Notes: a model not told the origin generated them from the sequence alone. Numbered from the stretch's first letter, positions 30,238 to 61,474 are shown. The stretch: 64,000 nt of DNA from Phycisphaerales bacterium (GCA_029246705.1 JAQWMQ010000041.1:142-64141), one strand, 5' to 3'. A program made the numbers and translations.

Positions 30238-31758
30238 ATGGTCATGGAAGACGAATCATCCGAAGAGCTTCTTGAGGGTGACGTCCTTGACAACCTGCCT
30301 CGTCGCTCGGTTCGAAGCGGCGCTGCGGTCCTGATCGCGCAAGGTGGGATCCTTGTCCTGGGCCTGGTGTCTGCTGCAGTGCTGGCCCGCCTGCTCAGTC
30401 CCGACGACTATGGATTGATCGGGATGGCGGCTGCGTTCATCGCATTCATCACCAATTTCGCCGATCTCGGGCTGCCTCTCGCCACCGTCCAGAGAGAACG
30501 GATCTCGCATGCCCAGTTGAGTTCGCTCTTCTGGATCAACGTCCTGGTGGGATGTCTCACCTTCTTGCTCGGTATCCTGCTTGCCTGGCCGGTGGCGTGG
30601 TTCTACGACAAGCCAGCGCTGATTCCGGTGGTGATGGGACTCGCCATTCCGTTCATCTTCACCGGACTCGGCGCTCAACAGGAAGCGTTGCTTCGACGCA
30701 GGATGCAATTCACGCACTTGTCCGTGATAAGCATTCTCTCCAACCTGACCGGGATCACCCTGGCGATCGCATCGGCCCTCTCCGGAGCGGGATACTGGTC
30801 CCTCGTCATTCTCGCACTCGGCACCTCTGTCTCGAAGTGCCTGATGTTCTGGATCGTCTCGCCATGGCGGCCGTCACCGCCGAGATTGGTCGAGGGGCTT
30901 CGTCCCATGATCAGGTTCGGGGCGTACATCACCGGTACGAATCTGCTCGCCACCTTGGTGCGAAACGTCGACAAGATCCTGATCGGACGCCTGATCAGTG
31001 TTGATGCCGTCGGTTACTACATGAATGCAAGTCGACTTCTGGTCATGCCGATCTCCCAGTTGAACATGCCCTTGACGAGCGTTGCGGTTCCGACCCTGAG
31101 CCGACTGCAGAACGATCCCAAGCGGTATCGTGGCTTCTACCGTCGTGGAGTCGAGGGCATCTCGTCCATGACCGTTCCGGCCGTGCTTTTCTTCCTGATC
31201 AGCGCCGATTTCGTCGTTCCGGCGGTCCTTGGAGATCAATGGCTGCCGTCGATCCCCATCTTCAAGGCGCTGGCGCCTGCGGCGTTGTTGGCAGGCGTCA
31301 ATGTCGTGACTTCCTGGGTGTTCGTTCCGCTGGGTCATTCTGGACGCCAGTTCCGCTGGCATGTGTTCCGATCGTTCGTGGTCCTGATCGCCTATGCAAT
31401 CGGAGTGAACTGGGGCGCCATCGGCGTGGCGATCAGCTTCAGCGCTTCCGCGGTTCTTCTGCGCATCCCGGGGGTGCTCTGGTGCATCAAGGGGACCTGC
31501 ATTCGTTTCAAGGACGTCATCGATTCTGTCTGGCGGGCGTTCACTGCGGGGGGGATCGCTTCGGTCGTCGGAGTACTGGTGGCTTCCAGCTTTGACCCGG
31601 CGGTGGAACGTTTTCTGCCCATCCCGATCATCCTGGGTTGCTTTGCGATCACCTATGCGATCTGTTGGATCCTCCTTCCGGGTGGCTGGGGCCGGTTGCA
31701 CGTCATCAGGTCGACCCTTGCCCATCTGATTCCGGGCAGGGGTGCCCCCGAGGGCTGA
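30238..31758 (+). CDS. Wzx-like polysaccharide/oligosaccharide flippase (MOP/PST family)
   Basis: 506 aa and about 12-14 TM helices. N-terminus RSVRSGAAVLIAQGGILVLGLVSAAVLARLLSPDDYGLIGMA is the canonical PST-family opening. Confidence 0.8.
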   Translation: MVMEDESSEELLEGDVLDNLPRRSVRSGAAVLIAQGGILVLGLVSAAVLARLLSPDDYGLIGMAAAFIAFITNFADLGLPLATVQRERISHAQLSSLFWINVLVGCLTFLLGILLAWPVAWFYDKPALIPVVMGLAIPFIFTGLGAQQEALLRRRMQFTHLSVISILSNLTGITLAIASALSGAGYWSLVILALGTSVSKCLMFWIVSPWRPSPPRLVEGLRPMIRFGAYITGTNLLATLVRNVDKILIGRLISVDAVGYYMNASRLLVMPISQLNMPLTSVAVPTLSRLQNDPKRYRGFYRRGVEGISSMTVPAVLFFLISADFVVPAVLGDQWLPSIPIFKALAPAALLAGVNVVTSWVFVPLGHSGRQFRWHVFRSFVVLIAYAIGVNWGAIGVAISFSASAVLLRIPGVLWCIKGTCIRFKDVIDSVWRAFTAGGIASVVGVLVASSFDPAVERFLPIPIILGCFAITYAICWILLPGGWGRLHVIRSTLAHLIPGRGAPEG

Positions 31759-31779
31759 CCCATTTAATGCCGGTTTAGC

Positions 31780-33051
31780 ATGACGGTCGTGGCTTGTATT
31801 TCCGTTATTATCCCTTGCATGGGTATCGAACAGATCAGACACGAGGACAGCTTTGGGCATCGTGCAACGACGGCGTTGCAGGAGGTGCGATTCTCACTTC
31901 TTGGTGTCTTTGAGTCGATTGATGACCTGAACGGGCAGCGGCCCATCGATCTTTCACGCCTCCTCGGCATTGACATGAAACTTGCCTGGAAGGCATCACG
32001 ACTCGTTCGTTCGGTCAACCCCGCTGAAATCCTGAATGAGCTCCCCGGTCGTCCCGGCTTCAAGAAACTGACCATTGCGGCCCAGAAGGCCGGGGCTTCA
32101 TCCGAGTCGATCGATCACCTTCGAGCGGCATACGAGACATTGAATTCGGAGATCGTGTCCCTCTCCGGAACACGCTCCCTCTTCGAAACGATGATCACCG
32201 GTCTCGGTTCCAACGTGGACACACCGCTTGCGGTTGAACAGCGGCGGCAGTTCTTCAACGGTGCTCGTGCCGTCTCCGGTAGTCAGTGTAACAGTTGCTA
32301 TCGACTGGACATCCTTGGTCCCTCATCCAAGGAAGGCTTCCTCGACTGCGCGACGATCAGGATGTCGATCGGTCTGGTGAAGTTCCATGTCACCGCTCCC
32401 TGGCGCATTCGACTGCCAGCTGTCCTGGATGACACTGGAAAGCGAAGTCGCCCTAGCAGGTGTGAACCCATCGGTTCCGCTCCTGGGGGATCAGAGCCGT
32501 CTTCCCCCCTGGTCAGCGAACTGTGCAGCGGCCCCGAGGTGAATCTGCTTCCGATCAACAGTGCTCAAGGAATCTGCGAGTACAGTTTCGAGGACAAGCT
32601 CATCGGCCCCGGATCAAAGCGGACGATCGCGATCGGCGAGGTGCTCAGGCAAGCTGAACCCGCCGTCGCCACCGACAGCCACCACGGCATCCACCAGATC
32701 ATGCGACTGCGGACCCCGATGGAATCTGCGGTGATGGATGTGCTCATGCACCGGGACACCTTCGCCTCCTCCGGCGATCCACGCCCGATCATCTATTCGG
32801 ATCTCTTCGGTGAACGCAGTGTTTCGACGTATCGGGAGACCGACCGGATGCCGATTCCGATCACGATCACGAACATCGACAACCCGGCTCTGGCTTCGGC
32901 TCCCAACGGCATGGACTCCGAGGCTTTCAGCCGCGTGCACGAGATCGCATTCGAGAAGACGGGCTGGTCGTTGGGCGACTTCCGCTACCAGCGAATCGAA
33001 CTCGCCTATCCGCCGGTTCCCTCGAGCCTGGTCTACGAAGTGGCATTGTAA
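31780..33051 (+). CDS. Hypothetical protein, no recognisable family (possible N-terminal HTH)
   Basis: 423-aa ORF 22 nt after the flippase gene on the same strand. The only hint is PIDLSRLLGIDMKLAWKASRLV near the N-terminus. Start uncertain (31780 or 31819). Confidence 0.5.
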   Translation: MTVVACISVIIPCMGIEQIRHEDSFGHRATTALQEVRFSLLGVFESIDDLNGQRPIDLSRLLGIDMKLAWKASRLVRSVNPAEILNELPGRPGFKKLTIAAQKAGASSESIDHLRAAYETLNSEIVSLSGTRSLFETMITGLGSNVDTPLAVEQRRQFFNGARAVSGSQCNSCYRLDILGPSSKEGFLDCATIRMSIGLVKFHVTAPWRIRLPAVLDDTGKRSRPSRCEPIGSAPGGSEPSSPLVSELCSGPEVNLLPINSAQGICEYSFEDKLIGPGSKRTIAIGEVLRQAEPAVATDSHHGIHQIMRLRTPMESAVMDVLMHRDTFASSGDPRPIIYSDLFGERSVSTYRETDRMPIPITITNIDNPALASAPNGMDSEAFSRVHEIAFEKTGWSLGDFRYQRIELAYPPVPSSLVYEVAL

Positions 33052-33082: not shown

Positions 33083-34018
33083 CTAGAAGCGCCATTCGTC
33101 GCTTGTCAGGTTCACCTTGAGTTCATCCCGGAGCCGTCGGTTGCTCCGTCTGATCCGCGTGTCGTTCGCGTCGATGAATTCCCGGATCACCTTTTCGTGT
33201 CTTTCCTGGAAATGCCTTCGCATGCGAAGTGGTGCGTGGGTGGACAGGAACAATGCCATCTTCTTCCAGAGGGCGTACAACCCCTCCGACTCCAATGGCG
33301 GTCCGGGATTCATGCTGGTTCGCCGGTGGAGAAGGTTCCCCCTTCGGAGGATCGCTGCTTCCAGTGGGTGTGGTCGCGCGTACTTCACTTCCTGGGAGAT
33401 TTCGGTGACGGGTTCTGCGCCAATGAAGTCGCAGATCGTGTTCATGTAGGCGATGGAATCCTTTTGCAGCAGTTCGAAATCAAGTGCCAGGACTCGTTCC
33501 CTGCCGAACCGTCTTGCATACTCCGTGACGATTTCGTCATGCAGGAGATAACTCGGTTCGAAATGAGGTATCCGGAAGTCTCCTGGGTGGTGCGGTCGAA
33601 GATAGTCATTTGCGGAGCAGTACAGTCCGATGCGAACCGCCTGGCACCAGATCGATTCGAGCTGTGACTGCTGGTCTCTCAGGATGACCAGGATCTTCGC
33701 ATCCGGACATAACCGCTGAAGTCGTTCTGCGGTCCTGTTCATGTCGAATGCCCCTGAACTGGGGTTTCCCGAGAAGCGTTCATGTGAAAGCACGGGGATA
33801 CCACCCCTTGATCTCACTGCTTCACATCGCGAATCGAGTTCCATTCGCAGGACATCCGCAGGGAAATCGGCATTGCACGGCTTGATGATCTTGCGTGCGA
33901 GGTCGGACCGATCCGGCCATGCATCGACGATGGGAGTTCCTTCATCCGGAAGGGCGGTCTGCTGGAACCAGGTCGATCCCGTTCGATGCAGTCCGATGTG
34001 TATCAGGAGCTCCGACAT
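33083..34018 (-). CDS. Sulfotransferase-family protein
   Basis: PAPS 5'-phosphosulfate loop IHIGLHRTGSTWF at the N-terminus and ILVILRDQQSQLES about 90 aa later. ATG 34018 shares one base with the DUF2304 stop (TGATG); the track start 34036 is a TTG. Confidence 0.7.
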   Translation of the reverse strand: MSELLIHIGLHRTGSTWFQQTALPDEGTPIVDAWPDRSDLARKIIKPCNADFPADVLRMELDSRCEAVRSRGGIPVLSHERFSGNPSSGAFDMNRTAERLQRLCPDAKILVILRDQQSQLESIWCQAVRIGLYCSANDYLRPHHPGDFRIPHFEPSYLLHDEIVTEYARRFGRERVLALDFELLQKDSIAYMNTICDFIGAEPVTEISQEVKYARPHPLEAAILRRGNLLHRRTSMNPGPPLESEGLYALWKKMALFLSTHAPLRMRRHFQERHEKVIREFIDANDTRIRRSNRRLRDELKVNLTSDEWRF

Positions 34019-34371
34019 CAGCGTGTATCTTCGCAATCACCATCCCTGTCGACCTCAATGATCGAGAGCTTCCGTACCAGGAGGGTGAACTCCTTGCGTA
34101 TCTGCCTGAGCCGGAGATACATGGAGAAGAAACCGATCGTCATGATGATCACCACGATGTAGAGAAGCAGGTCAGCGCCCCGGTGGATGCCGACGCTGTT
34201 GGCCAGAGTGGTCGTGATGTTCGGGTTCAACAGGGCAATGATCCCGAAGACCCAGACCAGGATCCAGAGCAGGCTCGGAATCCGGCCAAGTCGTTTCGTG
34301 ACCATCGCTCCGATGCTGATCAGCAGGAAGATGATCATCGCGGTGATGCCGATGTACTGGAATCCGGTCAT
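34018..34371 (-). CDS. DUF2304-like small membrane protein
   Basis: 117 aa, 3-4 TM helices, then an amphipathic tail LRLRQIRKEFTLLVRKLSIIE. ATGA overlap with the GT2 stop at 34368-34371. GT2 + DUF2304 is a recurrent gene pair. Confidence 0.55.
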   Translation of the reverse strand: MTGFQYIGITAMIIFLLISIGAMVTKRLGRIPSLLWILVWVFGIIALLNPNITTTLANSVGIHRGADLLLYIVVIIMTIGFFSMYLRLRQIRKEFTLLVRKLSIIEVDRDGDCEDTR

Positions 34372-35063
34372 CCGAAGACCCTTGAGATGATGTAGTGGAA
34401 GAGGATCCTGAATCCGCCGGTCCAACTCTGTCCCTTGCCGAGGGAGTACGCCGTGTATTCGATCTTGACCGGGTATTCTCGAATCACGAGGTCGCCGGCG
34501 AAGAGTTGGTCGATGATCTCGCTTGCGTGGGCCATTCGGTCGTTGGTCAGCTGGACCTGGCACGCCGCCTTTCGAGAGAGGACGCGAAGGCCGTTGTGCG
34601 CATCGGTGAGATTCGTTCCGGAGATCAGCTTCTGGAGGGTTGAGGCACAGCGCAACAGGACCCTCCGGCCGGTGGGGATCGAATCCCTCGTCTCCTTGTC
34701 GAGGAACCTCGAGCCCAGGGCCGCATCACATTCCCTGGCTTGGACCAATTCCACCATGTCGACCATGTCGATGATCCGATGTTGCCCGTCGGCATCGAAG
34801 GTGGCGATGATGTTCGCGCCACGTGAGAGTGCGTAGTCGATCCCGGTCTGGAGTGCAGCTCCCTGGCCTCGGTTCACGAAGTGCTTCAGCAAATGAGGGG
34901 TGTGTTTCCGTGCGATCTTGCTGGTTTCATCCGACGAACCATCGTCGATCACGACGATCTGGTAGCCGGTCGTCGCCACCTCGGCAAGGACTTCCCCCAG
35001 TATCGGGCCTTCGTTGAAGGCGGGGATGATGACGAAGATGTCTTCGTGTGTCGGTGTAGTCAC
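34368..35063 (-). CDS. GT2 polyprenyl-phosphate sugar synthase (DPM1/GtrB/ArnC-like)
   Basis: 231 aa, soluble. VIIPAFNEG ... IVVIDDGSSDET ... FDADGQH ... matches the dolichyl/undecaprenyl-phosphate glycosyltransferase pattern. GTG start. Confidence 0.85.
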   Translation of the reverse strand: MTTPTHEDIFVIIPAFNEGPILGEVLAEVATTGYQIVVIDDGSSDETSKIARKHTPHLLKHFVNRGQGAALQTGIDYALSRGANIIATFDADGQHRIIDMVDMVELVQARECDAALGSRFLDKETRDSIPTGRRVLLRCASTLQKLISGTNLTDAHNGLRVLSRKAACQVQLTNDRMAHASEIIDQLFAGDLVIREYPVKIEYTAYSLGKGQSWTGGFRILFHYIISRVFG

Positions 35064-35093
35064 AATGTCCTTATCGGGGCGAGATCACACAAT

Positions 35094-35115
35094 ATCAAAG
35101 TAACGATCAAAGTAA
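35094..35115. promoter_or_regulatory. Tandem direct repeat ATCAAAGTAA-CG-ATCAAAGTAA in a divergent promoter region (candidate operator)
   Basis: Two exact 10-mers at 35094-35103 and 35106-35115 (12-bp period) in the AT-rich 81-bp gap between divergent genes. They are bracketed by an imperfect inverted repeat CACACAATATC (35086-35096) / GATACTGTGTG (35132-35142). Confidence 0.3.
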
Positions 35116-35144
35116 GTGCAGCTAATTCTGCGATACTGTGTGTT

Positions 35145-37085
35145 ATGGGATCAAGTCGCGAAAGTACAGCCCCGCCTGGTCACACTTCACAAACAGTGTT
35201 GGTGGCATGCATTCTGGTCGGATTCCTGCTCCTCACCTGGCAGGGGGCTCTCGATGCTGACTTCGTGCTCGATGACCATCCCGTCATCGTGGAACAGGAA
35301 GGGCACATGCTCGGGCCAAAAGCGGTCTCGCGGGCCTTGGGGGCGGTTCGGCCGGTTACCGAGCTGACCTTCGTGCTCGACGCCCGCATGCATGACATGT
35401 CACCGCGCGGTTGGCACTGGACGAACCTGGTCATCCATCTCTTCGGTGCTCTTGCCTTGTTCGAGCTCGTCAGGCGATGCGCCTCGCTGGTGCTGTCGCG
35501 ATCACGGCGGTGTGGTTGTCCCGCGCGACTTGCACTTGCCGTCGGTTTCGTCACCGCGCTTCTCTGGTCGGTGCATCCGATCCACACGGAAGTGGTTTCC
35601 TACGTGGTCCAGCGATCGGAAGCACTTGCCGCACTGTTCGGTTTTCTTGCGCTCCTGTGCCTGGTGCTGTCTTTCGAGCAGGGCAAGTCCCTGCTCTGGA
35701 GCATTCCCGTATTCATCCTGGTTCTGCTCGCTTTGGGGTCGAAGGCCAGTGCGGTCTGCCTTGCCCCCATGCTCCTGCTTCTGGACTGGGGCGTTCTCGA
35801 GGGCAGCTTCGGGAAGGCGATCAGGAAGCGGTGGCCCCTGCACCTGGTGGCCTGGGTCCTGGTGATCGCATTCACCATCAGGGAGATCCTCTTCAATGGG
35901 CTGTTGGATGCGACTCCTGATCAGGCGGTCGGCGTGGGGCTGGGTGTTCGTGGTCAGGACGCACTCACCTATTTTCTTGCCCAGCTGGAGGCGGTTCCCG
36001 TCTACCTCGGGCTGATCATCTGGCCCAACGAGCTGCTCATCGATCGTCCCGACCGGACCGGTTCCTGGTCGACCGCGCTCATACCGGGGATCCTCTTTCT
36101 CATCGGCTGGCTTGCCGTCGGGTTGACGGGCCTGTCTCGTGGAAGGTGGTGGGGGGCGGTCATGTTGATGGCCATCATCGCGATCATGCCCAGTTCCTCC
36201 TTCATTCCGGTGGCGGACGTCATCGTCGAGCATCGGCTCTACCTGCCTCTTGCCCCGCTCGCGGTCCTGTTGGTCGGTGGTCTGGCGGGTGTCCTCCTCG
36301 CCACGAGCGAAAGAGGTTTCAGGCCTTCCTGGTTGCCCGTTTCACTGGTCGCTCTCTTCCTGGTCGTGATCGTCTCGCTTTCCGCGATACGAACCGATGC
36401 ACGCAACCTGGACTACGCCTCCCCCGGGATCCTGTGGTCACAGGTACTGGGAGCCGATACCGGAAGCGTCCGGGCGCGCATCAACTACTCAAGTGAACTG
36501 CTTCGCAAAGGTCGACACCAGGAAGCACTTCCATACATCGAGGAGATCCTCGCCACCCACCCGAGCAACCTTCAGGCACACATCAACGCCGGGATCGTGC
36601 TGCTTGCACTGGACCAGCCGGTTGAAGCCCTGATGCATCTTCGTATCGCGGAGGAGACCTACAGCGGGCACCCTTCCATGCATGCCGCGTTGGGCGACGC
36701 CGAACGGTCCCTGGGCAATCTCGAATCCGCGGAACACCACTTCAAGCGGGTCATCGAGCGACAGCCCAGCGATGCTCGGACCTGCCTGGTCCTGGCCAAT
36801 GTCCTGCAGGAACAAGGGCGCCTCGAGGAATCGATCGAATACCAGGAACTTGCCATAGGCATACTCCAGGGGGGGGTTGATCGTGAACTCCTGCATTCGG
36901 CGCTCATGAATCGGGGAAGTTCGGCATTTCAACTCGAACGTTGGTCCGAAGCTGCCGACTATTACCGGGAGGCCATGGCGACCGCGCCGACCGACGAGCA
37001 ACGGGAACGGATCGGGCCATACTTCGAGGCGGCTACAGTGCGTTCGACCCAGCTCGAAACCGGCGAACAGCAAGATGATGAATGA
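35145..37085 (+). CDS. Polytopic membrane protein with C-terminal TPR repeats; TMTC/PMT-like GT-C glycosyltransferase candidate
   Basis: Real start is ATG 35145; upstream track codons overlap the divergent GT2. The first loop motif DADFVLDDHPVIV resembles the DFVFDD loop of TMTC-type O-mannosyltransferases. About 10 TM helices, then TPRs (HQEALPYIEEILATHPSNLQAHIN..., LGNLESAEHHFKRVIERQPSDA...). Confidence 0.7.
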   Translation: MGSSRESTAPPGHTSQTVLVACILVGFLLLTWQGALDADFVLDDHPVIVEQEGHMLGPKAVSRALGAVRPVTELTFVLDARMHDMSPRGWHWTNLVIHLFGALALFELVRRCASLVLSRSRRCGCPARLALAVGFVTALLWSVHPIHTEVVSYVVQRSEALAALFGFLALLCLVLSFEQGKSLLWSIPVFILVLLALGSKASAVCLAPMLLLLDWGVLEGSFGKAIRKRWPLHLVAWVLVIAFTIREILFNGLLDATPDQAVGVGLGVRGQDALTYFLAQLEAVPVYLGLIIWPNELLIDRPDRTGSWSTALIPGILFLIGWLAVGLTGLSRGRWWGAVMLMAIIAIMPSSSFIPVADVIVEHRLYLPLAPLAVLLVGGLAGVLLATSERGFRPSWLPVSLVALFLVVIVSLSAIRTDARNLDYASPGILWSQVLGADTGSVRARINYSSELLRKGRHQEALPYIEEILATHPSNLQAHINAGIVLLALDQPVEALMHLRIAEETYSGHPSMHAALGDAERSLGNLESAEHHFKRVIERQPSDARTCLVLANVLQEQGRLEESIEYQELAIGILQGGVDRELLHSALMNRGSSAFQLERWSEAADYYREAMATAPTDEQRERIGPYFEAATVRSTQLETGEQQDDE

Positions 37086-38091
37086 GACCGAAGTCACGCT
37101 CGTCATTCCCGCTCGTGATGCAGCAGGCACCATCGATGCCTGCCTCGAGGCGGTCGATCGGGTTCGACTTCGTCCCGGGTCCAGGCTCGTCCGGGTGATC
37201 GTCGTCGACGACGGTTCAAGGGACGATACGCTCGAGAGGGTGCGACGCCATGATGTCGAGATCCTTGAAAGCGGTGGGCGAGGGGCCGGCGCCGCTCGGA
37301 ACATCGGCTGGCGCAAGGCGACCACACCGCTGGTCTGGTTCGTCGACAGTGACTGCGAACCCGAGCCGGAAGCACTCGAGACCCTGCTCGGTCACCTCGA
37401 TGATCCCGAGGTGTCCGGTGTCGGTGGCACCTACGGCATCGAGGATGGAGCGAGTCTGCTGGAGCGGCTCATTCACGAGGAGATCGTCGCTCGTCATGCG
37501 CACATGAAGGCGGATGTCGACTTCCTCGCCACCTACGACGTCCTCTACCGTCGTGATGTCCTCGATGAACTTGGCGGCTTCGACGAACGCTATCTCAAGG
37601 GCCAGGATGCTGAATTCGCCTTCCGGGTTCTTGAAGCCGGTCATCGTCTACGATTCGAGCATGGCTCGGTGGTCGTGCACCACCACGAACAACGGCTCGC
37701 ACGCTACCTGCACATCCAGCGACTCCAGGGCTACTGGCGCGTGGCGCTTCACATTGAACATGCAGGTCATTCCGGGGGTGATTCCTACAGCAGCCTGCTG
37801 GACCATGTCCAACCCTTCCTGCCGGTGCTTGTCATTGCATCGCTGGTGCTCCTGGTGGTGCCCTGGGGATGGACGGTTCCACTTGCGTGCCTGTCGTTGT
37901 TGCTGCTGGTGCAGTTGCCACGCACGATCGAACTCATCAGACGCACCGGTGACCCGGGGATGTTCGCCTTCGTGCTGATGTCGACGGTTCGAGCCTTCTG
38001 GCGCAGTGCCGGACTGGTGCAGGGCGTGTTGGACCGTCTCCTGCGACGTGGACCGATCGCCCCGCAACGCATCGGAAGGTCCGCTGGATGA
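37075..38091 (+). CDS. GT2 glycosyltransferase with C-terminal TM helices
   Basis: VTLVIPARDAAGTI ... VIVVDDGSRDDT ... FVDSDCEP ... then PVLVIASLVLLVVPWGW / LSLLLLVQL helices. 11-nt overlap with the upstream gene. Confidence 0.8.
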   Translation: MMNETEVTLVIPARDAAGTIDACLEAVDRVRLRPGSRLVRVIVVDDGSRDDTLERVRRHDVEILESGGRGAGAARNIGWRKATTPLVWFVDSDCEPEPEALETLLGHLDDPEVSGVGGTYGIEDGASLLERLIHEEIVARHAHMKADVDFLATYDVLYRRDVLDELGGFDERYLKGQDAEFAFRVLEAGHRLRFEHGSVVVHHHEQRLARYLHIQRLQGYWRVALHIEHAGHSGGDSYSSLLDHVQPFLPVLVIASLVLLVVPWGWTVPLACLSLLLLVQLPRTIELIRRTGDPGMFAFVLMSTVRAFWRSAGLVQGVLDRLLRRGPIAPQRIGRSAG

Positions 38092-43344: not shown

Positions 43345-43426
43345 CCTCGGCCGAGTAGGCTCACTTTCTCCAGATTCATTTTTCGTGCCCTTCGAGTATC
43401 GGTGATCTGCGGTACCGTATCTTCCG

Positions 43427-50970: not shown

Positions 50971-51342
50971 ATGGAAAGAAGAAGGATGCGACGTACAAAC
51001 CTCCAGATCGGATTGACTGTTGTGATCGGCCTTGGCGCTGCGGGTGGCATGCTCATCGCTGACAGCAAAGGCTCCGGTTTCTCTGATGGTGGGGACCTGA
51101 AATCCCCCCCCAACGATGATTTTCGTTCATCAGGATTCCGCATGGCTCATGCTGGCACCTCGCCTGGTGGTTGCGTTGGCGACTTCAATAATGACGGCAT
51201 GGTCGATGGTCAGGACCTTGCTGTTCTTCTTGGTGCATGGGCAACGACTGATTGCTCCTTCAGCATCGACGGTGATGCGAGCTGCTTCATCAATGGAGCG
51301 GATCTGACGGTTCTTCTTGGCAACTGGGGTCCTTGTAACTGA
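50971..51342 (+). CDS. Small membrane-anchored/secreted protein consisting almost only of a dockerin-like double repeat
   Basis: MERRRMRRTNLQIGLTVVIGLGAAGGMLIA (signal anchor), a ~45-aa linker, then CVGDFNNDGMVDGQDLAVLLGAWATTDCSFSIDGDASCFINGADLTVLLGNWGPCN-stop. Confidence 0.6.
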   Translation: MERRRMRRTNLQIGLTVVIGLGAAGGMLIADSKGSGFSDGGDLKSPPNDDFRSSGFRMAHAGTSPGGCVGDFNNDGMVDGQDLAVLLGAWATTDCSFSIDGDASCFINGADLTVLLGNWGPCN

Positions 51343-51439
51343 CACCTGTAGGGGGGTCAGTGCAGGGTAGGCCTTCATGTTCTTGATCAGGCCTTGCCGT
51401 GCAACGAGTGCACCTGTTCCTGCCGCTGGATGTTTATTG

Positions 51440-54400: not shown

Positions 54401-55054
54401 GTGGCCTCGGGCGAGGAATACCTCGATGCGGTCGAGGTTCATGTGCCTGCAATACCCGTAGGCAGCGTGTTCACGTTCTTCCTCGGGACCGACCAGGGGG
54501 GTGGTACACCCGCAACCATGGATCTCAAGCTCCTGGTTGACCGACCGATCCCCCTGACCGGTGAGATCGTTCGCATCGACCTTCCCGATGTCTACATCGG
54601 CCCTCCGGGGACGCTCTACTACATCGGCGCGCAGTACTACGATGACACGCCCGGCTGGAATCAGCCTATCGCCCTGGATACCACCGAACCCATGGGGTTG
54701 AGCTGGATCGCCTACGACGTCACGAGTGAGATCGATCCTTCCGATGTCCAGGGGACATCGGAGGTCTTCTCGCCTCTCGGTGAGCTGCTCTACGAGGCGA
54801 ATTGTCTCCTCGATGCAGTTGTCTTCGATGGCACACGAGAGAACGATTCGGATGGAGACGGCGTTCCCGACAACTGTACGGGCGGCGGATGCACCGGTGA
54901 CATCAATGATGATGATCGAATCGATGGCGAGGATCTCACCGCACTCCTTGGGGAGTGGGGTGGGACCAACCTGACCTTCGACTTCAACAACGATGGTGTC
55001 GTTGACGGTGGAGACCTGACCACTCTGCTTGGCAACTGGGGTGAGTGTCGCTGA
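51440..55054 (+). CDS. Giant secreted protein: PA14 domain, LamG domain, ~19 Cys-containing D-C-N-G-N-x-x-P-D-x-C repeats, two copies of an unassigned ~170-aa domain, C-terminal dockerin-like double repeat
   Basis: Signal peptide ...RRFQRLPVFICTCVLACLGLTSGVQG. PA14: GLLGRYYASS...FAVIWTGTIEAP...YTDDGVRLWVDGQLVIENW...IRLEYFESGGGATCQLTWR. LamG: FTIEAWVRLD...WHYVSVAWD...LKGSIDEVRISRGA. Tail CTGDINDDDRIDGEDLTALLGEWG...FNNDGVVDGGDLTTLLGNWGECR-stop. Alternative start at 51377. Confidence 0.85.
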   Translation: MIETILTGRRFQRLPVFICTCVLACLGLTSGVQGQGDQCDINSPPPPCSDCDNNNVRDVCEPELVDGLLGRYYASSDQSRFAELIEVKTDFQVDFEWGDGSPGFGVPADNFAVIWTGTIEAPISGLQEIATYTDDGVRLWVDGQLVIENWTNHSTQQDIAVVDFVAGERVPIRLEYFESGGGATCQLTWRLLGEMTFSSIPQEALRPDTDIDGDGYPDQCYADCNGNGINDLVEIEGDISADCNGNCSPDECDEFPKDIAGYWRFEGDDSLIFDSGQWGLFGSLGDALRQLDVDRRFIPQTGEENRGSIVMLDEVVTIPDPDGRLRFADESFTIEAWVRLDTLSTSADDNSQRQYILQKKPLAAYDSELGFSFMAQSGNIAGASQYEFGKRSGISGRELVLRFGLGSGPSINTWAITSFLEIDDTNWHYVSVAWDEEAAVARFVLDDQVDVVPAYAFGRAVGQGALRIGGHTNNSGLTNQMLKGSIDEVRISRGAKRFPRLLHQFGSIDCNGNGQLDRCDIVAGISADIDGNFIPDECEDCNGNELPDAYEVEQGFSPDCNGNLLPDDCDVADPLGDCDGNGIPDDCQLEDEDCNFNGIVDACDIASGTADDCQFDGIPDDCQLNEIVNYEYTDGFPEYGVRPDTGTHHTWMNGHRVENGANRLVAIEISYVYIDRGTPAMVYIWSDPTGDFDPSDAVLLGAVSSQVDMPDPSQGWRRQVVVLPQPIDVGVDGAVFFVGTSLRFSVENDDFPAAMDISPPTADGRSWHIGTEGPLDPNDVTANTTEYGPLDEILFSGNWDIRAVTLRQTGDCNSDGRIDICQIESGEYADINDNGVIDDCEDCNGNGIVDSFDIADGLSLDCQPDGIPDECQMLAGDCNQDGIPDTCAPDCDADSVPDSCAIASGLSEDVDGNGVPDECEDCNLNGIPDGLDVPPNGDEPDCDGDLVPDICELGAAQVIAIGNNDGLADTSLTLGTPGWLLWMETLTVASGEEYLDAVEVHVPAIPVGSVFTFFLGTDQGGGTPATMDLKLLVDRPIPLTGEIVRIDLPDVYIGPPGTLYYIGAQYYDDTPGWNQPIALDTTEPMGLSWIAYDVTSEIDPSDVQGTSEVFSPLGELLYEANCLLDAVVFDGTRENDSDGDGVPDNCTGGGCTGDINDDDRIDGEDLTALLGEWGGTNLTFDFNNDGVVDGGDLTTLLGNWGECR
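51459..51491 (+). terminator. Canonical intrinsic-terminator-like hairpin, located inside the first ~17 codons of the next gene
   Basis: CAGGCAGGCG (51459-51468) / loop TTTCCAG / CGCCTGCCTG (51476-51485), a perfect 10-bp stem, followed directly by TTTTTAT. It lies 117 nt after the stop of the 50971..51342 gene. Confidence 0.6.
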
Positions 55055-55113: not shown

Positions 55114-56793
55114 ATGAATGAAAAAAGCCGCTTGCCTGTCTGCTTAGGCGTGATCTCTTCGGCCCTGGTCGCTTTCTCGCTTTCGGCACAGGATGGATGT
55201 TTCACACCCGATGCCTGCGAGGATCTCAACGGCAACGGCGTGGTCGATGCCTGTGAGAACGTTGATTCCCTCGGAACCGGACTTCTCGGGAGCTACTACG
55301 GATCCTGCTCCGGTTCAATCTACGGTGGAGTGACTCCTTCGGAGCGCATTCTCACCAGGGTCGATGCCAACATCGACTTCCGGAATGATTCGGACTTTCC
55401 TCCGGCAGAGGTTCCGGGTGACCGATTCTTCGTGCGTTGGACGGGCGCGATCACCTCCGGGGAATCCGGTGTTCACGGATTCCGGGCACGCCATGACGAT
55501 GGTTTTCGCTGCTCCGTCAACGGACAGTGGATCATCGAGGACTGGGTCGACCAGAGTGGTGGGGAGTACCACGCGGGTGAGATCGAGTTGACCGCGGGTG
55601 TTCCTGCCCTGGTGGTCATCGAGTACTACGACAACAGTGGTTCCGATTTCTGCGAGCTGGAGTGGCGAACCCCCTCCATGGACGAGCATGAGATCGTGCC
55701 CACCGATGTCTTCTCGCCTTCGACGGATCTCGACGGTGACGGGTACCCGGATTTCGATGTCGAGGATTGTGATGGCGACGGCATTTCCGATGCCGTCGCG
55801 CTGGGTAGCGGACTTTCCAGGGACTGCGACCTGAATTGCGTGCCCGATGAGTGTGACGAGAGTGAACCGGAAGTGCTTGCCTGGTATCGATTCGAGAGCA
55901 ATCCTCTCGTGATCATCGATTCATCCGGCAACGATCGTCATTTGATCGCGAGTTCCGAGGTTTCCTTCAGCAGCGATCGTTTCTCCAACGAGATTCCACG
56001 AACCGGCGATGACAACTCTGGCAGTGTCGAGTTTCCTGATGACGGGCAGCTCCGTTTCCCTGATCCTGATGGGGTCTTCGCGCTCGGGGACGAGAGCTTC
56101 ACGGTGGAGGCGTGGCTCAAGGTCAATGCGGCCACCACCGAGAACAACGACCAGCGCCAGTATCTTCTGCAGAAGAAGTCCGCCACCGGAGACGTCAACG
56201 CCGGGTTCCAGATCCTTGCCCAGTGCGGAAACATCGCTGCGGCGGGTGATTGGTACGGCAAGTCCTCCAATCGGGGCGGCAATGAAATCGGGATTCGTTT
56301 CGGAAACGGTACGAGCGCCTACACCATGATCAGCCGGATTCAACTGGTCGATTGTGCAGGATGGGTCCACATGAGTGTGGCGGTCGACCAGGAGAACCAA
56401 CGCGTTCGCTTCGAGGTTGATGGCGTCGTCGAATGGCAGGATCTTCCGGGACTGGGGCATGTTCCCGGCCAGGGCGCGTTGCGTATCGGTGCGCACAGCA
56501 CATCTGCCGGCGACCTCGACCAGCATTTTGACGGCAAGCTCGACGAACTCCGCATCATTCGTGGTGTCCTCCCCTTGAGCGGGATGCTTGATCGGTCCAC
56601 CGAGGTCGAAGACTGCCCCGAGAATCCCTGTGACGGTGACTACGACGACTCCGGAAGCGTCGATGGGGCCGACCTCACCCAGCTGCTCGGGGGCTGGGGT
56701 ACCGTAGACGTTCTTCTTGATCTTGATGGGGCGCCGGGTATCGACGGCGCCGACCTGACCATTCTTCTTGGAAACTGGGGCGTATGCCCGTGA
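55114..56793 (+). CDS. Secreted PA14 + LamG protein with dockerin-like tail
   Basis: ATG is preceded by GGAG. Signal peptide MNEKSRLPVCLGVISSALVAFSLSAQ. PA14: GLLGSYYGS...FFVRWTGAITS...HDDGFRCSVNGQWIIEDW...VIEYYDNSGSDFCELEWR. LamG: FTVEAWLKVN...WVHMSVAVD...FDGKLDELRIIRGV. Tail CDGDYDDSGSVDGADLTQLLGGWG...APGIDGADLTILLGNWGVCP-stop. Confidence 0.85.
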   Translation: MNEKSRLPVCLGVISSALVAFSLSAQDGCFTPDACEDLNGNGVVDACENVDSLGTGLLGSYYGSCSGSIYGGVTPSERILTRVDANIDFRNDSDFPPAEVPGDRFFVRWTGAITSGESGVHGFRARHDDGFRCSVNGQWIIEDWVDQSGGEYHAGEIELTAGVPALVVIEYYDNSGSDFCELEWRTPSMDEHEIVPTDVFSPSTDLDGDGYPDFDVEDCDGDGISDAVALGSGLSRDCDLNCVPDECDESEPEVLAWYRFESNPLVIIDSSGNDRHLIASSEVSFSSDRFSNEIPRTGDDNSGSVEFPDDGQLRFPDPDGVFALGDESFTVEAWLKVNAATTENNDQRQYLLQKKSATGDVNAGFQILAQCGNIAAAGDWYGKSSNRGGNEIGIRFGNGTSAYTMISRIQLVDCAGWVHMSVAVDQENQRVRFEVDGVVEWQDLPGLGHVPGQGALRIGAHSTSAGDLDQHFDGKLDELRIIRGVLPLSGMLDRSTEVEDCPENPCDGDYDDSGSVDGADLTQLLGGWGTVDVLLDLDGAPGIDGADLTILLGNWGVCP

Positions 56794-59135
56794 GAACCAC
56801 CATGTTGCACAACACCGCACTCGTACTCGCTTTCGTCTGCTCCGCAGGCGCCGTCGCCGACGTCGCCTATGTCCGGGCAGGTGCCGCTCCCGGCGGCGAT
56901 GGACTCTCCTGGGCGACTGCCAAGCCTGGCATTCGCGGAGGGATCAACGTCGCCGCGGCAAATCCCGACGTGACCGAGATCTGGGTCGCTGCGGGTACCT
57001 ATCCCTGCGGTGGAGCACCCTACCTCCTGCCACAGGGCGTGCCGATGTACGGTGGCTTCACCGGGGTCGAGACCGAGTGGTCGGAGCGCGATCCCTACCT
57101 CAATCAGACCACCCTCGATGCGAATGGCCAGAGCGGTGTTCTCGAGGGCGGCGATGATTGGGAATTCGGCGAGCTGCTCGTCGACGGCTTCGTGATCGCC
57201 GGTGGGCGAGCGACCGAGGGGGCTGGCTACTTCGCCTACAACGCGAGTCCGATCTTCGTGAACTGCGATTTCCGCGGGAATGTCGCCAACGGTGGCGATG
57301 GCGGTGCGATCCGGATCTACGAGGGCTCAGGACTCTTCGTGAACTGCGACTTTCGCGGGAACGAAGCGGGGGGCAGCGGTGGCGCCATCGATTGGTATGA
57401 CTGCTTTGCGACCTTCGTGAACTGCCGGTTCCGGAACAACAAGGCCGGCGGCTCCGGTGGCGCCATCGCCATCTATGAGAACGGACCCCGTCTCATCAAC
57501 TGCACGCTGTTCGGAAACGAGATCACCAACGGCCTCGATGACGACTACAACACCGGCTCCGCGATCATGGACTACCGAGGCGTCTGTCGGCTCGACAACT
57601 GCATCGTCTGGGGCAACACCGGCGCCGTCGCTTCCCAGGCCTATCCCTTCCCTCAGCATGGCTACTATCCGCCGGAAAACACACCGGTCTACAACTGGTC
57701 GATCGTGGACTGGGATCAGTTCCAGGGCGTGAACACCATTTCCTCGCATCCCGAACTCAGTGACAGCCCGGAACGCACGTTCCCCAAGGTCTTTTCGCCG
57801 GCGGTCGACTCCGCCAATCCCGAGTACCTGCCTGCCGACGAGTTCGATCTCGATCGTGACGGTGATTACACCGAGACCGTACCCCTCGACTGCTCCGGAC
57901 GGGAGCGTTTCGTGGATGCCACGGTCGTCGTCGATCAGGGGCCGCCGGATCCCTTCAATCCGATCGCGCTCGATCGTGGCGCCTATGAGTTCGACGATGA
58001 CTGCAACGGAAACGGCATCTCCGACATCCTCGACATTCAGGCCGGTGCACCGGACTGCGACGGTGACATGATTCCCGACGAGTGCGAGCTCGATTGGAAT
58101 GGTGATGGAGTCGCGGACATCTGTCAGATCCTCGCGGGTGAGGAACCCGACTGCAATGACAACGAACTGCTGGATGCCACCGACATCGCCCGGGGCGATC
58201 TGGACCGGGACGGCAACGGGGTTCCTGATTCCTGCCAGCCCGACTGCAACGGCAACGAACGACCGGACACGCTCGACATCTCGGTCGGGTTCTCGGTGGA
58301 TTGCAACGACAACGGAGTCCCGGACGAGTGCGAAATCATCACCCCGGAGGATGCGGTCTACGGTATCAGCGACGGCAGTTCCGAGATCTTCATCGCCGAG
58401 GACACCGAACCGACCATCATCTGGATCCAGGGATTCGAGATCGAGGAGGGACGTGAGACGATCGGTGCGGTCGAGTACATCATGGGCATGGTCGCCGGGG
58501 GCGGCAACTGCTCGGTCGGGATCTGGCTGGATTCCGATGGTGATCGTGATCCCAGCAACGCTGAACTGCTCGCATTGACCTCCAGCGTGATCCGCTGGCC
58601 CGCCAGCGACATGTACACCCGCGCCTGGTTCGATGAGGCCCTGACCTTCTCGCCCGGAGACATCGTCTTCGCGGGTGTGGTCTACGACCAGCAACCCGGT
58701 GAATACGCCGTGCCCCTCGACCAGAGCGCCAACTCGACCGATTCCTGGGTCGCCTTTGGAGGCGCCACTGCCGAGAATCTGGGCGGGGTGGGCACGATCG
58801 GACGGATCGGGGATTTCGGCCTGCCCGGGTGCTGGCAGATTCGAATGATCCCGGGACTGCCGATCGAAACCGACTGCAACGGAAATCTCCGACCCGATGA
58901 CTGCGACATCGCAGACGGCGCCGCGGATGGAAACGGTGACGGGATTCCTGACGAGTGCGACGAAAACGCCTGCACCGGTGACTTCGATCAAAGCGGTGGC
59001 GTTGACGGTGCCGACCTCTCGCGACTGCTCGGTTTCTGGGGCACCGTGAATGCGGAAGTCGATCTGGACGGAAGCCCCGGCATCGACGGTGCGGACCTCA
59101 CCCTGCTCCTTGGTCTCTGGGGGAACTGCCCCTGA
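56784..59135 (+). CDS. Secreted beta-helix protein with Pmp-type GGAI/FxxN repeats, 9 Cys repeats, unassigned ~170-aa domain, dockerin-like tail
   Basis: Overlaps the upstream stop by 10 nt (alternative ATG 56802 gives MLHNTALVLAFVCSAGAVA). DGLSWATAKPG...IWVAAGTY. Repeats GGDGGAIRIY..LFVNCDFRGN, GSGGAIDWY..TFVNCRFRNN, GSGGAIAIY..RLINCTLFGN. Tail CTGDFDQSGGVDGADLSRLLGFWG...SPGIDGADLTLLLGLWGNCP-stop. Confidence 0.85.
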   Translation: MPVRTTMLHNTALVLAFVCSAGAVADVAYVRAGAAPGGDGLSWATAKPGIRGGINVAAANPDVTEIWVAAGTYPCGGAPYLLPQGVPMYGGFTGVETEWSERDPYLNQTTLDANGQSGVLEGGDDWEFGELLVDGFVIAGGRATEGAGYFAYNASPIFVNCDFRGNVANGGDGGAIRIYEGSGLFVNCDFRGNEAGGSGGAIDWYDCFATFVNCRFRNNKAGGSGGAIAIYENGPRLINCTLFGNEITNGLDDDYNTGSAIMDYRGVCRLDNCIVWGNTGAVASQAYPFPQHGYYPPENTPVYNWSIVDWDQFQGVNTISSHPELSDSPERTFPKVFSPAVDSANPEYLPADEFDLDRDGDYTETVPLDCSGRERFVDATVVVDQGPPDPFNPIALDRGAYEFDDDCNGNGISDILDIQAGAPDCDGDMIPDECELDWNGDGVADICQILAGEEPDCNDNELLDATDIARGDLDRDGNGVPDSCQPDCNGNERPDTLDISVGFSVDCNDNGVPDECEIITPEDAVYGISDGSSEIFIAEDTEPTIIWIQGFEIEEGRETIGAVEYIMGMVAGGGNCSVGIWLDSDGDRDPSNAELLALTSSVIRWPASDMYTRAWFDEALTFSPGDIVFAGVVYDQQPGEYAVPLDQSANSTDSWVAFGGATAENLGGVGTIGRIGDFGLPGCWQIRMIPGLPIETDCNGNLRPDDCDIADGAADGNGDGIPDECDENACTGDFDQSGGVDGADLSRLLGFWGTVNAEVDLDGSPGIDGADLTLLLGLWGNCP

Positions 59136-61474
59136 TGAGGAGGCTCATCGTCATCCTCACCGGTCTGGCTTGTGCATGCACCGCTGCGGCTGACGTTGCG
59201 TATGTCCGAAATGACGCGCCCGACGGTGGGGACGGCCTCTCGTGGGCGACCGCGAAACGGAACCTGCGCGGCGGTCTGACCATGGCGCGGGAGAACGATG
59301 CCATCACGGAGATCTGGGTCGCGGCGGGCACCTACCGCTGCAATGGCGAACCGTTCGAGCTCGTGCAGGAGATCCCCGTCTACGGTGGATTCAGCGGTGA
59401 TGAGGTCGAGTGGCAGGATCGTGACCCACTGGCCAACGAATGCATTCTCGACGGGCAGTACCAGTGCCGGGTTCTGCGGGGTGGCTACGGCTGGCCCATG
59501 GGCGACCTGCGCGTCGACGGATTCGTGATCACCAAGGGGCGTGACTGGCAGGCCGGTGCCTGGGAGAACTATGAGGCCAACCCGATCTTCATCAACTGCC
59601 GGTTCGTCGGGAACCAGGCACATGCCGGCAACGGTGGTGCGATCAACAACTACACCGGCGAAGGCCTCTTCGTGAACTGCGATTTCCGCGGGAACACCGC
59701 GAGCGGTCGTGGTGGTGCGATCAACTGGTACGACTGCAGGGCGACCTTCGTGAACTGTCGGTTCCGAAGCAACGAGTCCGGGGGCAGCGGGGGGGCGATC
59801 GAGGTCTACGACAACGGTGGCCACTTCATCAACTGCACCTTCTTCGGCAACCGGGTCGGCGAGACCGTTTTTCCGGAGAACATCGTCTCCGGATCCGCGA
59901 TCATGGACTACCGCGGGGTCGCCCGACTCGACAACTGCATCGTCTGGGGCAATACCGGCGGCGGTTGGATCGAATACCCGTTCACCGAGCATGCCTACTT
60001 CCCGCCGGAAGGTCCCCCGACCTACAACTGGTCGATCGTCGCCTGGGACGGTTTCGAGGGTGAGAACAACCACGTGCTGCATCCGGAACTCGAGGACTCG
60101 GATGCGGGCACCCCGCCACGAGTGATCTCCTCCGCGATCGACTCCGCGAACCACTACTACCTTCCCCCCGACACGTACGATCTCGATCGGGACGGGGACG
60201 TCACCGAGCTCATCTCCCTGGATCTTGCCGGGCAGCCCCGATTCGTGAACTCGACGATCGTGGACGACCGGGTGCCCTTCGATCTCGACCCGCCACCCGC
60301 TCTCGACCGTGGTGCCTACGAATTCAATGACGACTGCAACGGCAACGGCGTGTCCGACATCAACGACATTCTCGGCGGGGCCAGTCTCGACTGCGATGGC
60401 GACCTCATTCCCGACGAGTGCGAACTCGACTGGGACGGTGATGGGGTCGCGGACGTGTGCGAGATCCTCAGCGGTGACGAAGAGGACTGCAACGGCAATC
60501 TGGCGCTCGACCTGATGGATGTCGTCCGCGGGACGTCGAACGATCGAAACAACAACGATCGACCGGACGAATGCGACATCGACTGCAATGAAAACGGTCG
60601 TCCCGACGAACTCGACATCGCCTCCGGCTTCTCCGCCAACTGCAACAACAACCTGATCCCCGACGAATGCGAGATCCCGACCCCGGACGAGTACTTCTAC
60701 GCCGACAACGACGGCAGTGCCGAGGTCTACCTCACCGACAACGGAACACTGGACATCATCTGGCTGCAGGGATTCGAGATCGAGGCCGGTCGGGAACGCA
60801 TTCGCGGGATCGACTACGTCATCGGCGACATTCCCTCCGGCCGACGCTGCTCGGTCGCCATCTGGCATGACGAGGATGGTGATCGGAACCCCGGGAATGC
60901 GACCCTCGTTGTCGCCCGCGACATCCCGGTCCTCTTCGACGGGAATGATGCCTTCGATCGGGTCCGCCTCCAGGAGACCATCGAGTTCGAACCCGGTGAC
61001 TTCGTCTTCGTCGGCGTGATCTATGGGCAGCAGGGTGGAGAGGGATCCGCACCTCTGGACCAGAGCGCAGGATCCTCCGATGCCTGGATCGCGTACGGCT
61101 CGGCGAACGCCGAGAACCTCTCGGAATCGGGCGGTCTCGATCGAGTCTCGACCGTGGGCTTCCCCGGTCGCTGGCTGATCAGGATGGTGCCCTCCCTGAG
61201 CCTTCCCAACGACTGCAACGGGAACCTGCGTCCGGACAACTGCGACATCGCGAACGGTGCGGGCGACGCCGATGGCGACGGGGTGCTCGATGCCTGTGAC
61301 CAGAGCGACTGTCTCGGCGACGTCGACAAGAACCTCCGGGTCGACGGCGAGGACCTGACCGAACTCCTCAGCTGGTGGGGAACGAGTCGGCCCGCGTCCG
61401 ATCTCAATCGCGATGGTCTGGTCGACGGGGCGGACCTGAACACCCTGCTTGGTGCCTGGGGACCGTGCCCCTGA
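59135..61474 (+). CDS. Tandem paralog of 56784..59135 (same domain order)
   Basis: TGATG junction with the upstream gene. Signal peptide MRRLIVILTGLACACTAAA. Collinear with the upstream paralog, including identical DNA blocks (TCTTCGTGAACTGCGATTTCCGCGGGAA at 57253 and 59667; CTCGACAACTGCATCGTCTGGGGCAA near 57590 and 59928). Tail CLGDVDKNLRVDGEDLTELLSWWG...RDGLVDGADLNTLLGAWGPCP-stop. Confidence 0.85.
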   Translation: MRRLIVILTGLACACTAAADVAYVRNDAPDGGDGLSWATAKRNLRGGLTMARENDAITEIWVAAGTYRCNGEPFELVQEIPVYGGFSGDEVEWQDRDPLANECILDGQYQCRVLRGGYGWPMGDLRVDGFVITKGRDWQAGAWENYEANPIFINCRFVGNQAHAGNGGAINNYTGEGLFVNCDFRGNTASGRGGAINWYDCRATFVNCRFRSNESGGSGGAIEVYDNGGHFINCTFFGNRVGETVFPENIVSGSAIMDYRGVARLDNCIVWGNTGGGWIEYPFTEHAYFPPEGPPTYNWSIVAWDGFEGENNHVLHPELEDSDAGTPPRVISSAIDSANHYYLPPDTYDLDRDGDVTELISLDLAGQPRFVNSTIVDDRVPFDLDPPPALDRGAYEFNDDCNGNGVSDINDILGGASLDCDGDLIPDECELDWDGDGVADVCEILSGDEEDCNGNLALDLMDVVRGTSNDRNNNDRPDECDIDCNENGRPDELDIASGFSANCNNNLIPDECEIPTPDEYFYADNDGSAEVYLTDNGTLDIIWLQGFEIEAGRERIRGIDYVIGDIPSGRRCSVAIWHDEDGDRNPGNATLVVARDIPVLFDGNDAFDRVRLQETIEFEPGDFVFVGVIYGQQGGEGSAPLDQSAGSSDAWIAYGSANAENLSESGGLDRVSTVGFPGRWLIRMVPSLSLPNDCNGNLRPDNCDIANGAGDADGDGVLDACDQSDCLGDVDKNLRVDGEDLTELLSWWGTSRPASDLNRDGLVDGADLNTLLGAWGPCP

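Follow-up and report, generated by a model that had tools for sequence, protein, structure and literature searches.

The locus described here raises the question whether a set of genes for the synthesis of a glycan and the genes for secreted lectin-type proteins that follow it belong to one system. It is located in a 64,000-nucleotide stretch of DNA from a Phycisphaerales bacterium (GCA_029246705.1 JAQWMQ010000041.1:142-64141), referred to below as the window, which corresponds to C6:142-64141 of a 3.66-Mb genome in 45 contigs (G000). A preliminary description of the window reported a glycan island rich in sulfotransferases, followed by five genes for secreted proteins of lectin-like architecture, and proposed that these proteins either bind the glycan or serve as substrates for its attachment. 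The whole of the present finding is based on comparative genomics. That the island and the lectin-type proteins are functionally coupled is judged likely. The proposed linked system is thus supported through its conservation, while binders and substrates were not told apart.

Conservation of the adjacency in relatives had been set beforehand as the first test of this proposal. The product of the last gene of the island, a family 4 glycosyltransferase (GT4), was searched against 201 genomes of the family, up to 20 kb were fetched around each ortholog, and the fetched loci were annotated with the window proteins and with a hidden Markov model (HMM) of the dockerin-like tail that ends the secreted proteins. 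All genomes compared are metagenome-assembled genomes (MAGs) with short contigs, and the open reading frames (ORFs) were picked crudely; 25 loci had usable flanks. Orthologs of the GT4 protein were detected in 27 of the 201 genomes, belonging to 13 genera, with 34–61% identity. At 19 of the 25 loci a dockerin-tailed gene is located less than 1 kb downstream of the GT4 gene on the same strand (g1, g15, g62, g67, g72, g82 and g42; 7 of the 13 genera). The block that precedes it reads TPR-tailed GT-C membrane protein, family 2 glycosyltransferase (GT2), TPR-tailed GT-C protein, GT2, GT2, (Wzx), sulfotransferase, sulfotransferase and GT4, the brackets marking an inconstant member. In three rearranged loci (g54, g68 and g49) a pair consisting of a mini-dockerin gene and a PA14-LamG gene is still found in the cluster, beside GT2_34368 or ST_45926, a glycosyltransferase and a sulfotransferase gene numbered by their window positions. 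In g67 and g72, an HTTM gene and a sulfotransferase gene are found beyond the lectin genes, which are thereby embedded in the cluster. No tailed gene or pair was seen in the cluster at 3 of the 25 loci; the GT4 identity is lowest at these three, which are possibly not orthologous. Roughly ten genera keep the adjacency, at protein identities that fall from about 61% to about 35%, and it has withstood three independent rearrangements.

In 15 genomes from seven genera, the contig with the GT4 ortholog also encodes, no more than about 15 kb away, a homolog of the PA14-LamG proteins with 37–46% identity, either collinear or domain-shuffled. In orthologs of this type the Pfam families PA14, LamG_3, Beta_helix and Chlam_PMP were confirmed, and the beta-helix homolog of g72 matches Beta_helix (73 bits), Chlam_PMP, LamG_3 and Dicty_CTDC. 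A second family-wide search with the PA14-LamG segment was positive in 27 of the 201 genomes. Both markers are present in 23 genomes, GT4 only in 4, PA14-LamG only in 4 and neither in 170 (Fisher p 3e-22), a value to be read as an upper bound on the evidence, since the genera share ancestry and p-values overstate their independence. The retention of the linkage through rearrangements at 35–45% identity is a stronger argument than this p-value. In a genome of the same genus (G001, loci L001/L002) the region is syntenic from the upstream flank to the first beta-helix protein, including the mini-protein and both PA14-LamG proteins, with 56–86% identity. This flank, which lies immediately upstream of the island, contains the planctomycete marker families PSCyt1/PSCyt2/PSD1 and DUF1501 (Pfam). 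The Wzx gene and the four-gene segment at 43.4–46.8 kb are missing from G001, which indicates that the island varies within the genus.

Within the genome of the window, 12% of all genes have a tailed gene as an immediate neighbour, and the adjacency in this genome alone is not significant. Chance adjacency is rejected because of the family-wide synteny and co-occurrence, the base rate in a single genome being high. The run of five tailed genes is the longest in the genome, and 2 of the 6 PA14 domains of the genome are encoded at this locus. Of the glycan-type genes elsewhere in the genome, 0/13 have a tailed neighbour, compared with 12% for all genes. This rules out a general association of dockerin genes with glycan genes, and any link is therefore specific to this island. 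The GC content at third codon positions (GC3) of most island genes and of both PA14-LamG genes falls in the 4th–22nd percentile of the genome, the exceptions being Wzx, the 874-aa TPR-tailed protein (TPR874) and HTTM at the 46th–60th. Higher values, in the 60th–86th percentile, are seen for the flanks and the last beta-helix gene; with a GC3 of 0.80, this gene for a 779-aa protein resembles the flanks and not the island. The common low GC3 is compatible with joint acquisition or with a shared expression class.

The glycan island comprises about 20.6 kb (30238-50811) and ends at 50811, as had been described, with the stop codon of the GT4 gene. According to the Pfam matches it encodes a Wzx-type flippase, six GT2 and one GT4 enzymes, five sulfotransferases above the cut-off and a weak sixth one, two TPR-tailed membrane proteins and an HTTM protein:

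30238-31758, plus strand: Wzx-type flippase (Polysacc_synt_3, 292.9 bits), with orthologs in the conserved cluster of other genera
31780-33051, plus strand: conserved soluble protein unk423, with orthologs inside the cluster
33083-34036, minus strand: sulfotransferase (Sulfotransfer_3, 34 bits; 30 bits in the genome scan, above the cut-off)
34368-35063, minus strand: small GT2 (Glycos_transf_2, 86.7 bits), divergent from the GT-C gene, candidate polyprenyl-phosphate sugar synthase
34881-37085, plus strand: 734-aa TPR-tailed GT-C membrane protein (TPR matches), with the probable start near 35145
37075-38091, plus strand: GT2 (Glycos_transf_2, 86.1 bits), overlapping the start of the next gene, 84% identity in G001
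38088-40712, plus strand: 874-aa second TPR-tailed polytopic protein (DUF6541 family, GT-C fold, from a structural model, Foldseek and a Pfam match of a homolog)
40722-41657, minus strand: GT2 (Pfam, 49.9 bits)
41677-43452, minus strand: HTTM-domain (gamma-carboxylase-type) membrane protein (Pfam HTTM, 39.5 bits), conserved cluster member
43427-44107, plus strand: weak sulfotransferase (Pfam), first gene of the variable segment 43427-46798
44116-~44990, minus strand: GT2 (Pfam), variable segment
44997-45929, minus strand: sulfotransferase above the Sulfotransfer_3 cut-off, variable segment
45926-46798, minus strand: sulfotransferase above the Sulfotransfer_3 cut-off, variable segment
46654-50811, plus strand: conserved block of GT2, two sulfotransferases and GT4 (Pfam), its order kept in most of the 27 GT4-bearing genomes (13 genera)
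47925-48749, plus strand: sulfotransferase of this block, above the Sulfotransfer_3 cut-off
48749-49588, plus strand: sulfotransferase of this block, above the Sulfotransfer_3 cut-off
49528-50811, plus strand: GT4 (Pfam), last gene of the island

The island contains 5–6 of the 9–10 Sulfotransfer_3 genes of the genome (whole-genome Pfam search). The genome encodes an adenosine 5′-phosphosulfate (APS) kinase (238 bits), so the sulfate donor 3′-phosphoadenosine 5′-phosphosulfate (PAPS) should be available. Several sulfotransferases, glycosyltransferases and a PAPS supply, which together characterize sulfated-glycan clusters, are thus present, and the product of the island is predicted to be sulfated. 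The APS kinase gene (G000:C18:145051-148081) adjoins another sulfotransferase gene, with a PA14 protein encoded 12 kb away (C18:133362); this region may be a second sulfation locus. The protein unk423 gave no match in Pfam, NCBIfam, PDB or PADLOC. In genus g42 its ortholog is encoded between two dockerin-tailed PA14 genes, and a 362-aa ORF lies there between GT4 and the first PA14 protein (L049:10525-11613), whose match to Sulfatase is weak (E 9e-4) and does not reach the cut-off.

One of the two TPR-tailed membrane proteins had been described as a TMTC-like, O-mannosyltransferase-type enzyme. The 734-aa protein carries the acidic motif DADFVLDD, a loop of the FVxDD type, in its first periplasmic loop and a TPR array at its C-terminus; its orthologs carry FV(F/Y)DD, and the one in G006 (26% identity) matches PMT_2 with 31.7 bits at a cut-off of 26.1. 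The window protein itself matches no GT-C Pfam model at E <= 5, and the TMTC-specific model DUF1736 is matched neither by it nor by its orthologs. What stands of the TMTC-like assignment is an architectural resemblance within the GT-C superfamily and not a proven membership. For the 874-aa protein, an AlphaFold2 (AF2) model was built with 32 homologs (pLDDT 82.5). Its best non-TPR Foldseek matches are the DPY19 C-mannosyltransferase, Stt3 and PglB, with E of 4e-5 to 3e-4 and a modest TMt of 0.36–0.45, and its homolog P0024 matches DUF6541 with 55 bits. A strongly conserved loop of this protein (D124, H128, R131, R133, N142, D144, Y153 and H157) looks like an active-site loop. Each of the two GT-C genes adjoins a small GT2 gene. 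Pairs of a polyprenyl-phosphate sugar synthase and a periplasmic transferase are known as ArnC/ArnT, GtrB/GtrC and Ppm1/Pmt, and the GT2 enzymes beside the GT-C genes are presumed to be donor synthases of this kind. This role is assigned to the GT2 at 34368-35063 because of its small size and its pairing with a GT-C gene. For the two GT-C proteins, unk423 and the beta-helix protein, searches of PDB sequences returned nothing usable.

The AT-richer gap of about 160 bp noted after the island measures 159 bp (50812-50970), with a GC content of 48% against 61% for the window. The five co-oriented genes behind it, in which PA14, LamG, beta-helix, acidic cysteine-repeat and dockerin-loop modules had been recognized, do encode secreted proteins of this composition, as seen from Pfam matches and sequence patterns:

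50971-51342, plus strand: mini-protein of about 123 aa, consisting only of a signal peptide, a linker with PxNDD(F/Y)R and a GC-type dockerin tail
51377-55054, plus strand: 1225-aa secreted protein (P0001) with PA14 (94.7 bits), LamG_3, acidic Cys repeats, a shared domain of about 170 aa in two copies and a dockerin tail, 37–40% identity to its orthologs next to the cluster in seven genera
55114-56793, plus strand: 559-aa secreted protein (P0002) with PA14, LamG_3 and a dockerin tail
56784-59135, plus strand: 783-aa beta-helix protein with Chlam_PMP repeats, Cys repeats, the shared domain and a dockerin tail, 85% identity in G001
59135-61474, plus strand: 779-aa paralog of the preceding protein, with a Chlam_PMP-type beta-helix, Cys repeats and a dockerin tail

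Both PA14 domains score above the Pfam cut-off (94.7 and 50 bits) and contain a DDG motif. The LamG_3 scores are 35.9 and 43.1 bits, whereas Laminin_G_2 remains under its cut-off with 18.4 bits. The 1225-aa protein carries many acidic repeats of the form DCNGNG(I/V)PD(D/E)C, which probably bind Ca2+. The 559-aa protein was modelled with AF2, with a pLDDT of 75–90 for PA14 and LamG (LamG jelly roll 75–88) and unreliable values below 40 for the dockerin part. Foldseek matched the PA14 model to the sugar-binding PA14 domains of the Marinobacter and Marinomonas RTX adhesins (TMt 0.60–0.67) and to RsgI sensors, and the LamG model to ConA-like jelly-roll carbohydrate-binding modules. An analogy to the animal laminin-G domains that bind matriglycan had been drawn in the preliminary description; the LamG fold is confirmed, and the analogy is one of generic fold membership, the match being to the ConA-like LamG_3. 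No catalytic family was found for the five proteins in Pfam, NCBIfam or PDB sequence searches.

The mini-protein represents a true ortholog family. In seven genera (g1, g67, g72, g82, g54, g68 and g49), orthologs with the same linker motif are found after the cluster. The motif PxNDD(F/Y)R is invariant in them (for example L044:7724-8119 and L048:10804-11190), and in rearranged clusters, too, they remain beside the PA14-LamG gene. A GC-rich, terminator-like hairpin of 13 pairs with a T-run is located on the plus strand (51458-51486), within the codons for the signal peptide of the 1225-aa protein. It recurs at the same site in G001 (L001 ~7770-7810, minus strand) with one compensatory change of a G-C to an A-T pair, and was absent from the other genera in which it was looked for. 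In this genus, the hairpin may attenuate transcription between the mini-gene and the large genes.

All five proteins end in ...DG.DL..LLG.WG.C(P/N/R), with a further Cys about 55 residues upstream and a duplicated DxDxDG loop and helix in the tail. A consensus of 103 tails of the genome selected by a regular expression, which also served as the seed of the tail HMM, matches NF041540 dockerin_GC with 40.4 bits (cut-off 29) and Pfam Dockerin_1 with 26.4 bits (cut-off 22.9). The five local tails share the pattern and all fall below these cut-offs, four scoring 15–26 bits and that of P0002 being unmatched. With the tail HMM, 171 of 193 matches lie within 12 residues of a C-terminus. The resulting 171 tailed ORFs account for 6.6% of the genes that encode 150 aa or more, and they cover 8.6% of the bases of the genome. 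A search of the whole genome with Pfam Cohesin was negative at E <= 0.01. A cellulosome-type cohesin-dockerin reading is ruled out, since the genome has no cohesin and the five proteins include no enzymes. A role of the island as general sorting or anchoring machinery for dockerin tails was likewise rejected: relatives such as G014, G022 and G023 are rich in tails (100–250 first-pass candidate matches, a rough proxy) and have no GT4 ortholog. We infer that the GC-dockerin tail probably holds the proteins at the cell surface. The literature search returned no paper on the GC-type dockerin and none pairing Phycisphaerae with sulfotransferases.

Our tentative proposal is that a single conserved surface-coat module, belonging to an uncultured aquatic Phycisphaerales family, comprises both the island and the five genes, and that the proteins would bind or organize the self-made sulfated glycan. 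According to this proposal, the cytoplasmic GT4 and GT2 enzymes and the PAPS-dependent sulfotransferases would build a sulfated oligosaccharide on a lipid carrier, and Wzx would flip it to the periplasmic side. The two periplasm-facing GT-C enzymes, fed with polyprenyl-phosphate sugars by the small GT2 enzymes, would add sugars or transfer the glycan. The non-catalytic PA14, LamG, beta-helix and Cys-repeat proteins would be exported and held at the surface by the GC-dockerin tail. There they might bind the sulfated glycan of the island and arrange it into a coat or matrix, in the manner of the matrix proteins of the Vibrio polysaccharide.

Several observations, besides the shared ancestry of the genera, weigh against this proposal. 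LamG_3 and PA14 are generic folds whose targets could be foreign glycans, for example algal ones. Among the window genes Pfam detects Wzx and no Wzy, polysaccharide co-polymerase (PCP), outer-membrane polysaccharide exporter (OPX) or priming phosphoglycosyl transferase family; these may be encoded elsewhere or by unannotated proteins. The product may consequently be a short glycan on a lipid or protein rather than a free polymer. In g62 a different dockerin-like protein is encoded after the island, and PA14-LamG proteins are encoded on other contigs with no island genes nearby. One of the two partners occurs alone in three to four genomes; some MAGs carry PA14-LamG with no detectable GT4, or have the two on separate short contigs. 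The link between island and lectin genes is not obligatory, as g62 shows.

The same Pfam profile, with Wzx in the window and Wzy, PCP and OPX not seen there, is the usual shape of en-bloc glycosylation systems and not of polymer export. It thereby favours the idea that the island is a protein-glycosylation system and the secreted proteins are its acceptors, with a GT-C enzyme using either the sulfated oligosaccharide, once flipped, or single sugars to modify the Cys-repeat, linker or dockerin-tailed proteins. We regard this as rather unlikely, though deserving serious attention. In its favour are the two TPR-tailed GT-C enzymes, one of them PMT_2/TMTC-like and the other with DPY19, Stt3 and PglB, all protein-glycosylating, as its best non-TPR fold matches. 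The PxNDD(F/Y)R motif of the mini-protein, conserved in seven genera, could moreover be a recognition site for glycosylation. However, the fold matches are modest (TMt 0.36–0.45), GT-C enzymes also act on lipids and glycans, and TPR domains are equally common in polysaccharide export scaffolds, such as AlgK, PelB and BcsC. No Ser/Thr-rich or sequon-rich region is evident in the four large proteins on reading the sequence, with no formal test applied, and in g62 the PA14-LamG genes are parted from the island.

The arrangement in g62, where PA14-LamG proteins are encoded elsewhere, also fits an explanation in which two separate surface traits are kept together for co-regulation or co-transfer: a capsule- or lipopolysaccharide-like coat, and adhesins for external glycans of algae or particles. 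The matched PA14 structures from RTX adhesins bind foreign sugars, Chlam_PMP beta-helices are of the adhesin type, and most members of the very large dockerin-tailed family have no link to glycan genes. The low GC3 common to the island and to P0001 and P0002 is compatible with joint transfer. Nevertheless, the linkage persists through three independent rearrangements and the embedding between glycan genes is kept at 35–45% identity, which is unusual for functionally unrelated neighbours, and we hold this explanation to be unlikely.

An enzymatic role of the large proteins in processing the product of the island, for instance as a lyase or epimerase of the beta-helix type or as a ConA-like hydrolase, is improbable. 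Many exopolysaccharide loci do carry a dedicated lyase or hydrolase, and the right-handed beta-helix (Chlam_PMP; Beta_helix with 73 bits in the g72 homolog) and the ConA-like folds implied by the name of PF13385, which include glucanases and lyases, would suit such a role. Against it, no catalytic family was matched in Pfam, NCBIfam or PDB sequences, the GGAI/FxxN repeats are of the adhesin passenger-domain type, and the Foldseek matches of LamG are binding modules. That a gene family of such abundance adjoins the island by chance, for which the 171 tailed ORFs (8.6% of bases) and the tailed neighbours of 12% of genes would speak, is very improbable in view of the conservation in about ten genera, the strong co-occurrence and the retention through rearrangements.

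A further reading, which we consider speculative, is a bacterial counterpart of an animal-style extracellular matrix in free-living Phycisphaerales. Either LamG and PA14 lectins, kept on the cell by their GC-dockerin tails, would capture the sulfated glycan in a Ca2+-dependent manner, or the TMTC- and DPY19/Stt3-like enzymes would attach it to the Cys-repeat proteins, with the mini-protein as adaptor or primer. The likeness to the eukaryotic TMTC/PMT/DPY19 and laminin-G systems consists of the TPR-tailed or DPY19-like GT-C proteins, the LamG jelly rolls and the acidic Cys repeats. It is confined to the level of fold and architecture, as DUF1736 is unmatched and the LamG match is the generic LamG_3.

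Among bacterial systems, the vps-I/rbm/vps-II region of Vibrio cholerae provides a close parallel in the sense that secreted lectin/adhesin-fold and beta-helix proteins are encoded beside exopolysaccharide genes. In the gene order reportedly given by Fong and Yildiz, the matrix-protein genes lie between or beside the vps genes. In the family studied here, genes for secreted non-enzymatic proteins are likewise conserved beside or inside a glycan cluster. The two loci differ in that they have no sequence relationship, and the present one has predicted sulfation, PA14/LamG proteins with GC-dockerin tails and no polymerase or exporter genes seen. The RbmA protein of Vibrio cholerae binds the polysaccharide directly (PMC5605196).

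Clusters for sulfated glycans are already known from bacteria, and the tail family is already catalogued as NF041540. Sulfated glycans are, to our knowledge, uncommon among bacteria, with a biosynthesis worked out in detail only for the cyanobacterial synechan. The synechan (xss) cluster has Wzy, Wzc and Wza functions, which are not seen in this window. This cluster of Synechocystis is described with GT2/GT4 enzymes, sulfotransferases and a Wzx-type flippase (PMC8205485). The putative sulfated glycosaminoglycan-like cluster of Pontiella, as far as the available part of its report goes, has the same kinds of genes together with a polyprenyl-phosphate mannosyltransferase and a GT-C-type YfhO, and no lectin or dockerin is mentioned in that part (PMC7356697).

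With the NF041540 family the five proteins share a C-terminal, Cys-bounded, duplicated Ca-loop module ending in G-C. The family model names the tail only, with no partner, function or link to glycan synthesis described there. The PEP-CTERM/exosortase system (Haft 2006) is said to comprise a large secreted family with one C-terminal tag, some members of which are encoded in exopolysaccharide loci. In contrast, the tag described here is a folded dockerin-like domain in place of a transmembrane sorting signal, the analysis identified no exosortase-like gene, and the tail family is abundant in relatives that do not have the island.

If the proposal is true, the module gives a first handle on how the cell surface is built in abundant uncultured marine and freshwater Phycisphaerales. 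It would also provide the first functional context for the GC-type dockerin tail, which has no cohesin partner in this genome, and would show whether the animal-matrix pairing of lectins with sulfated glycans arose independently in bacteria.

The nearest named relative of the organism is a Phycisphaerales bacterium MAG from Station ALOHA, and the other relatives are marine and freshwater MAGs. In the window, the lectin genes are followed by a xylose-isomerase-like TIM-barrel gene and an FGGY kinase gene (61520-63999). A distant MAG in which no GT4 ortholog was detected has the same two genes in the vicinity of a PA14-LamG ortholog and an unk423 homolog (L060:16275-20027). The first 24 kb of the window contain housekeeping genes and, among them, one additional dockerin-tailed LamG protein, a LamG_3 protein of 979 aa with a GC-type dockerin tail, encoded at 7654-10593, 20 kb upstream of the island.

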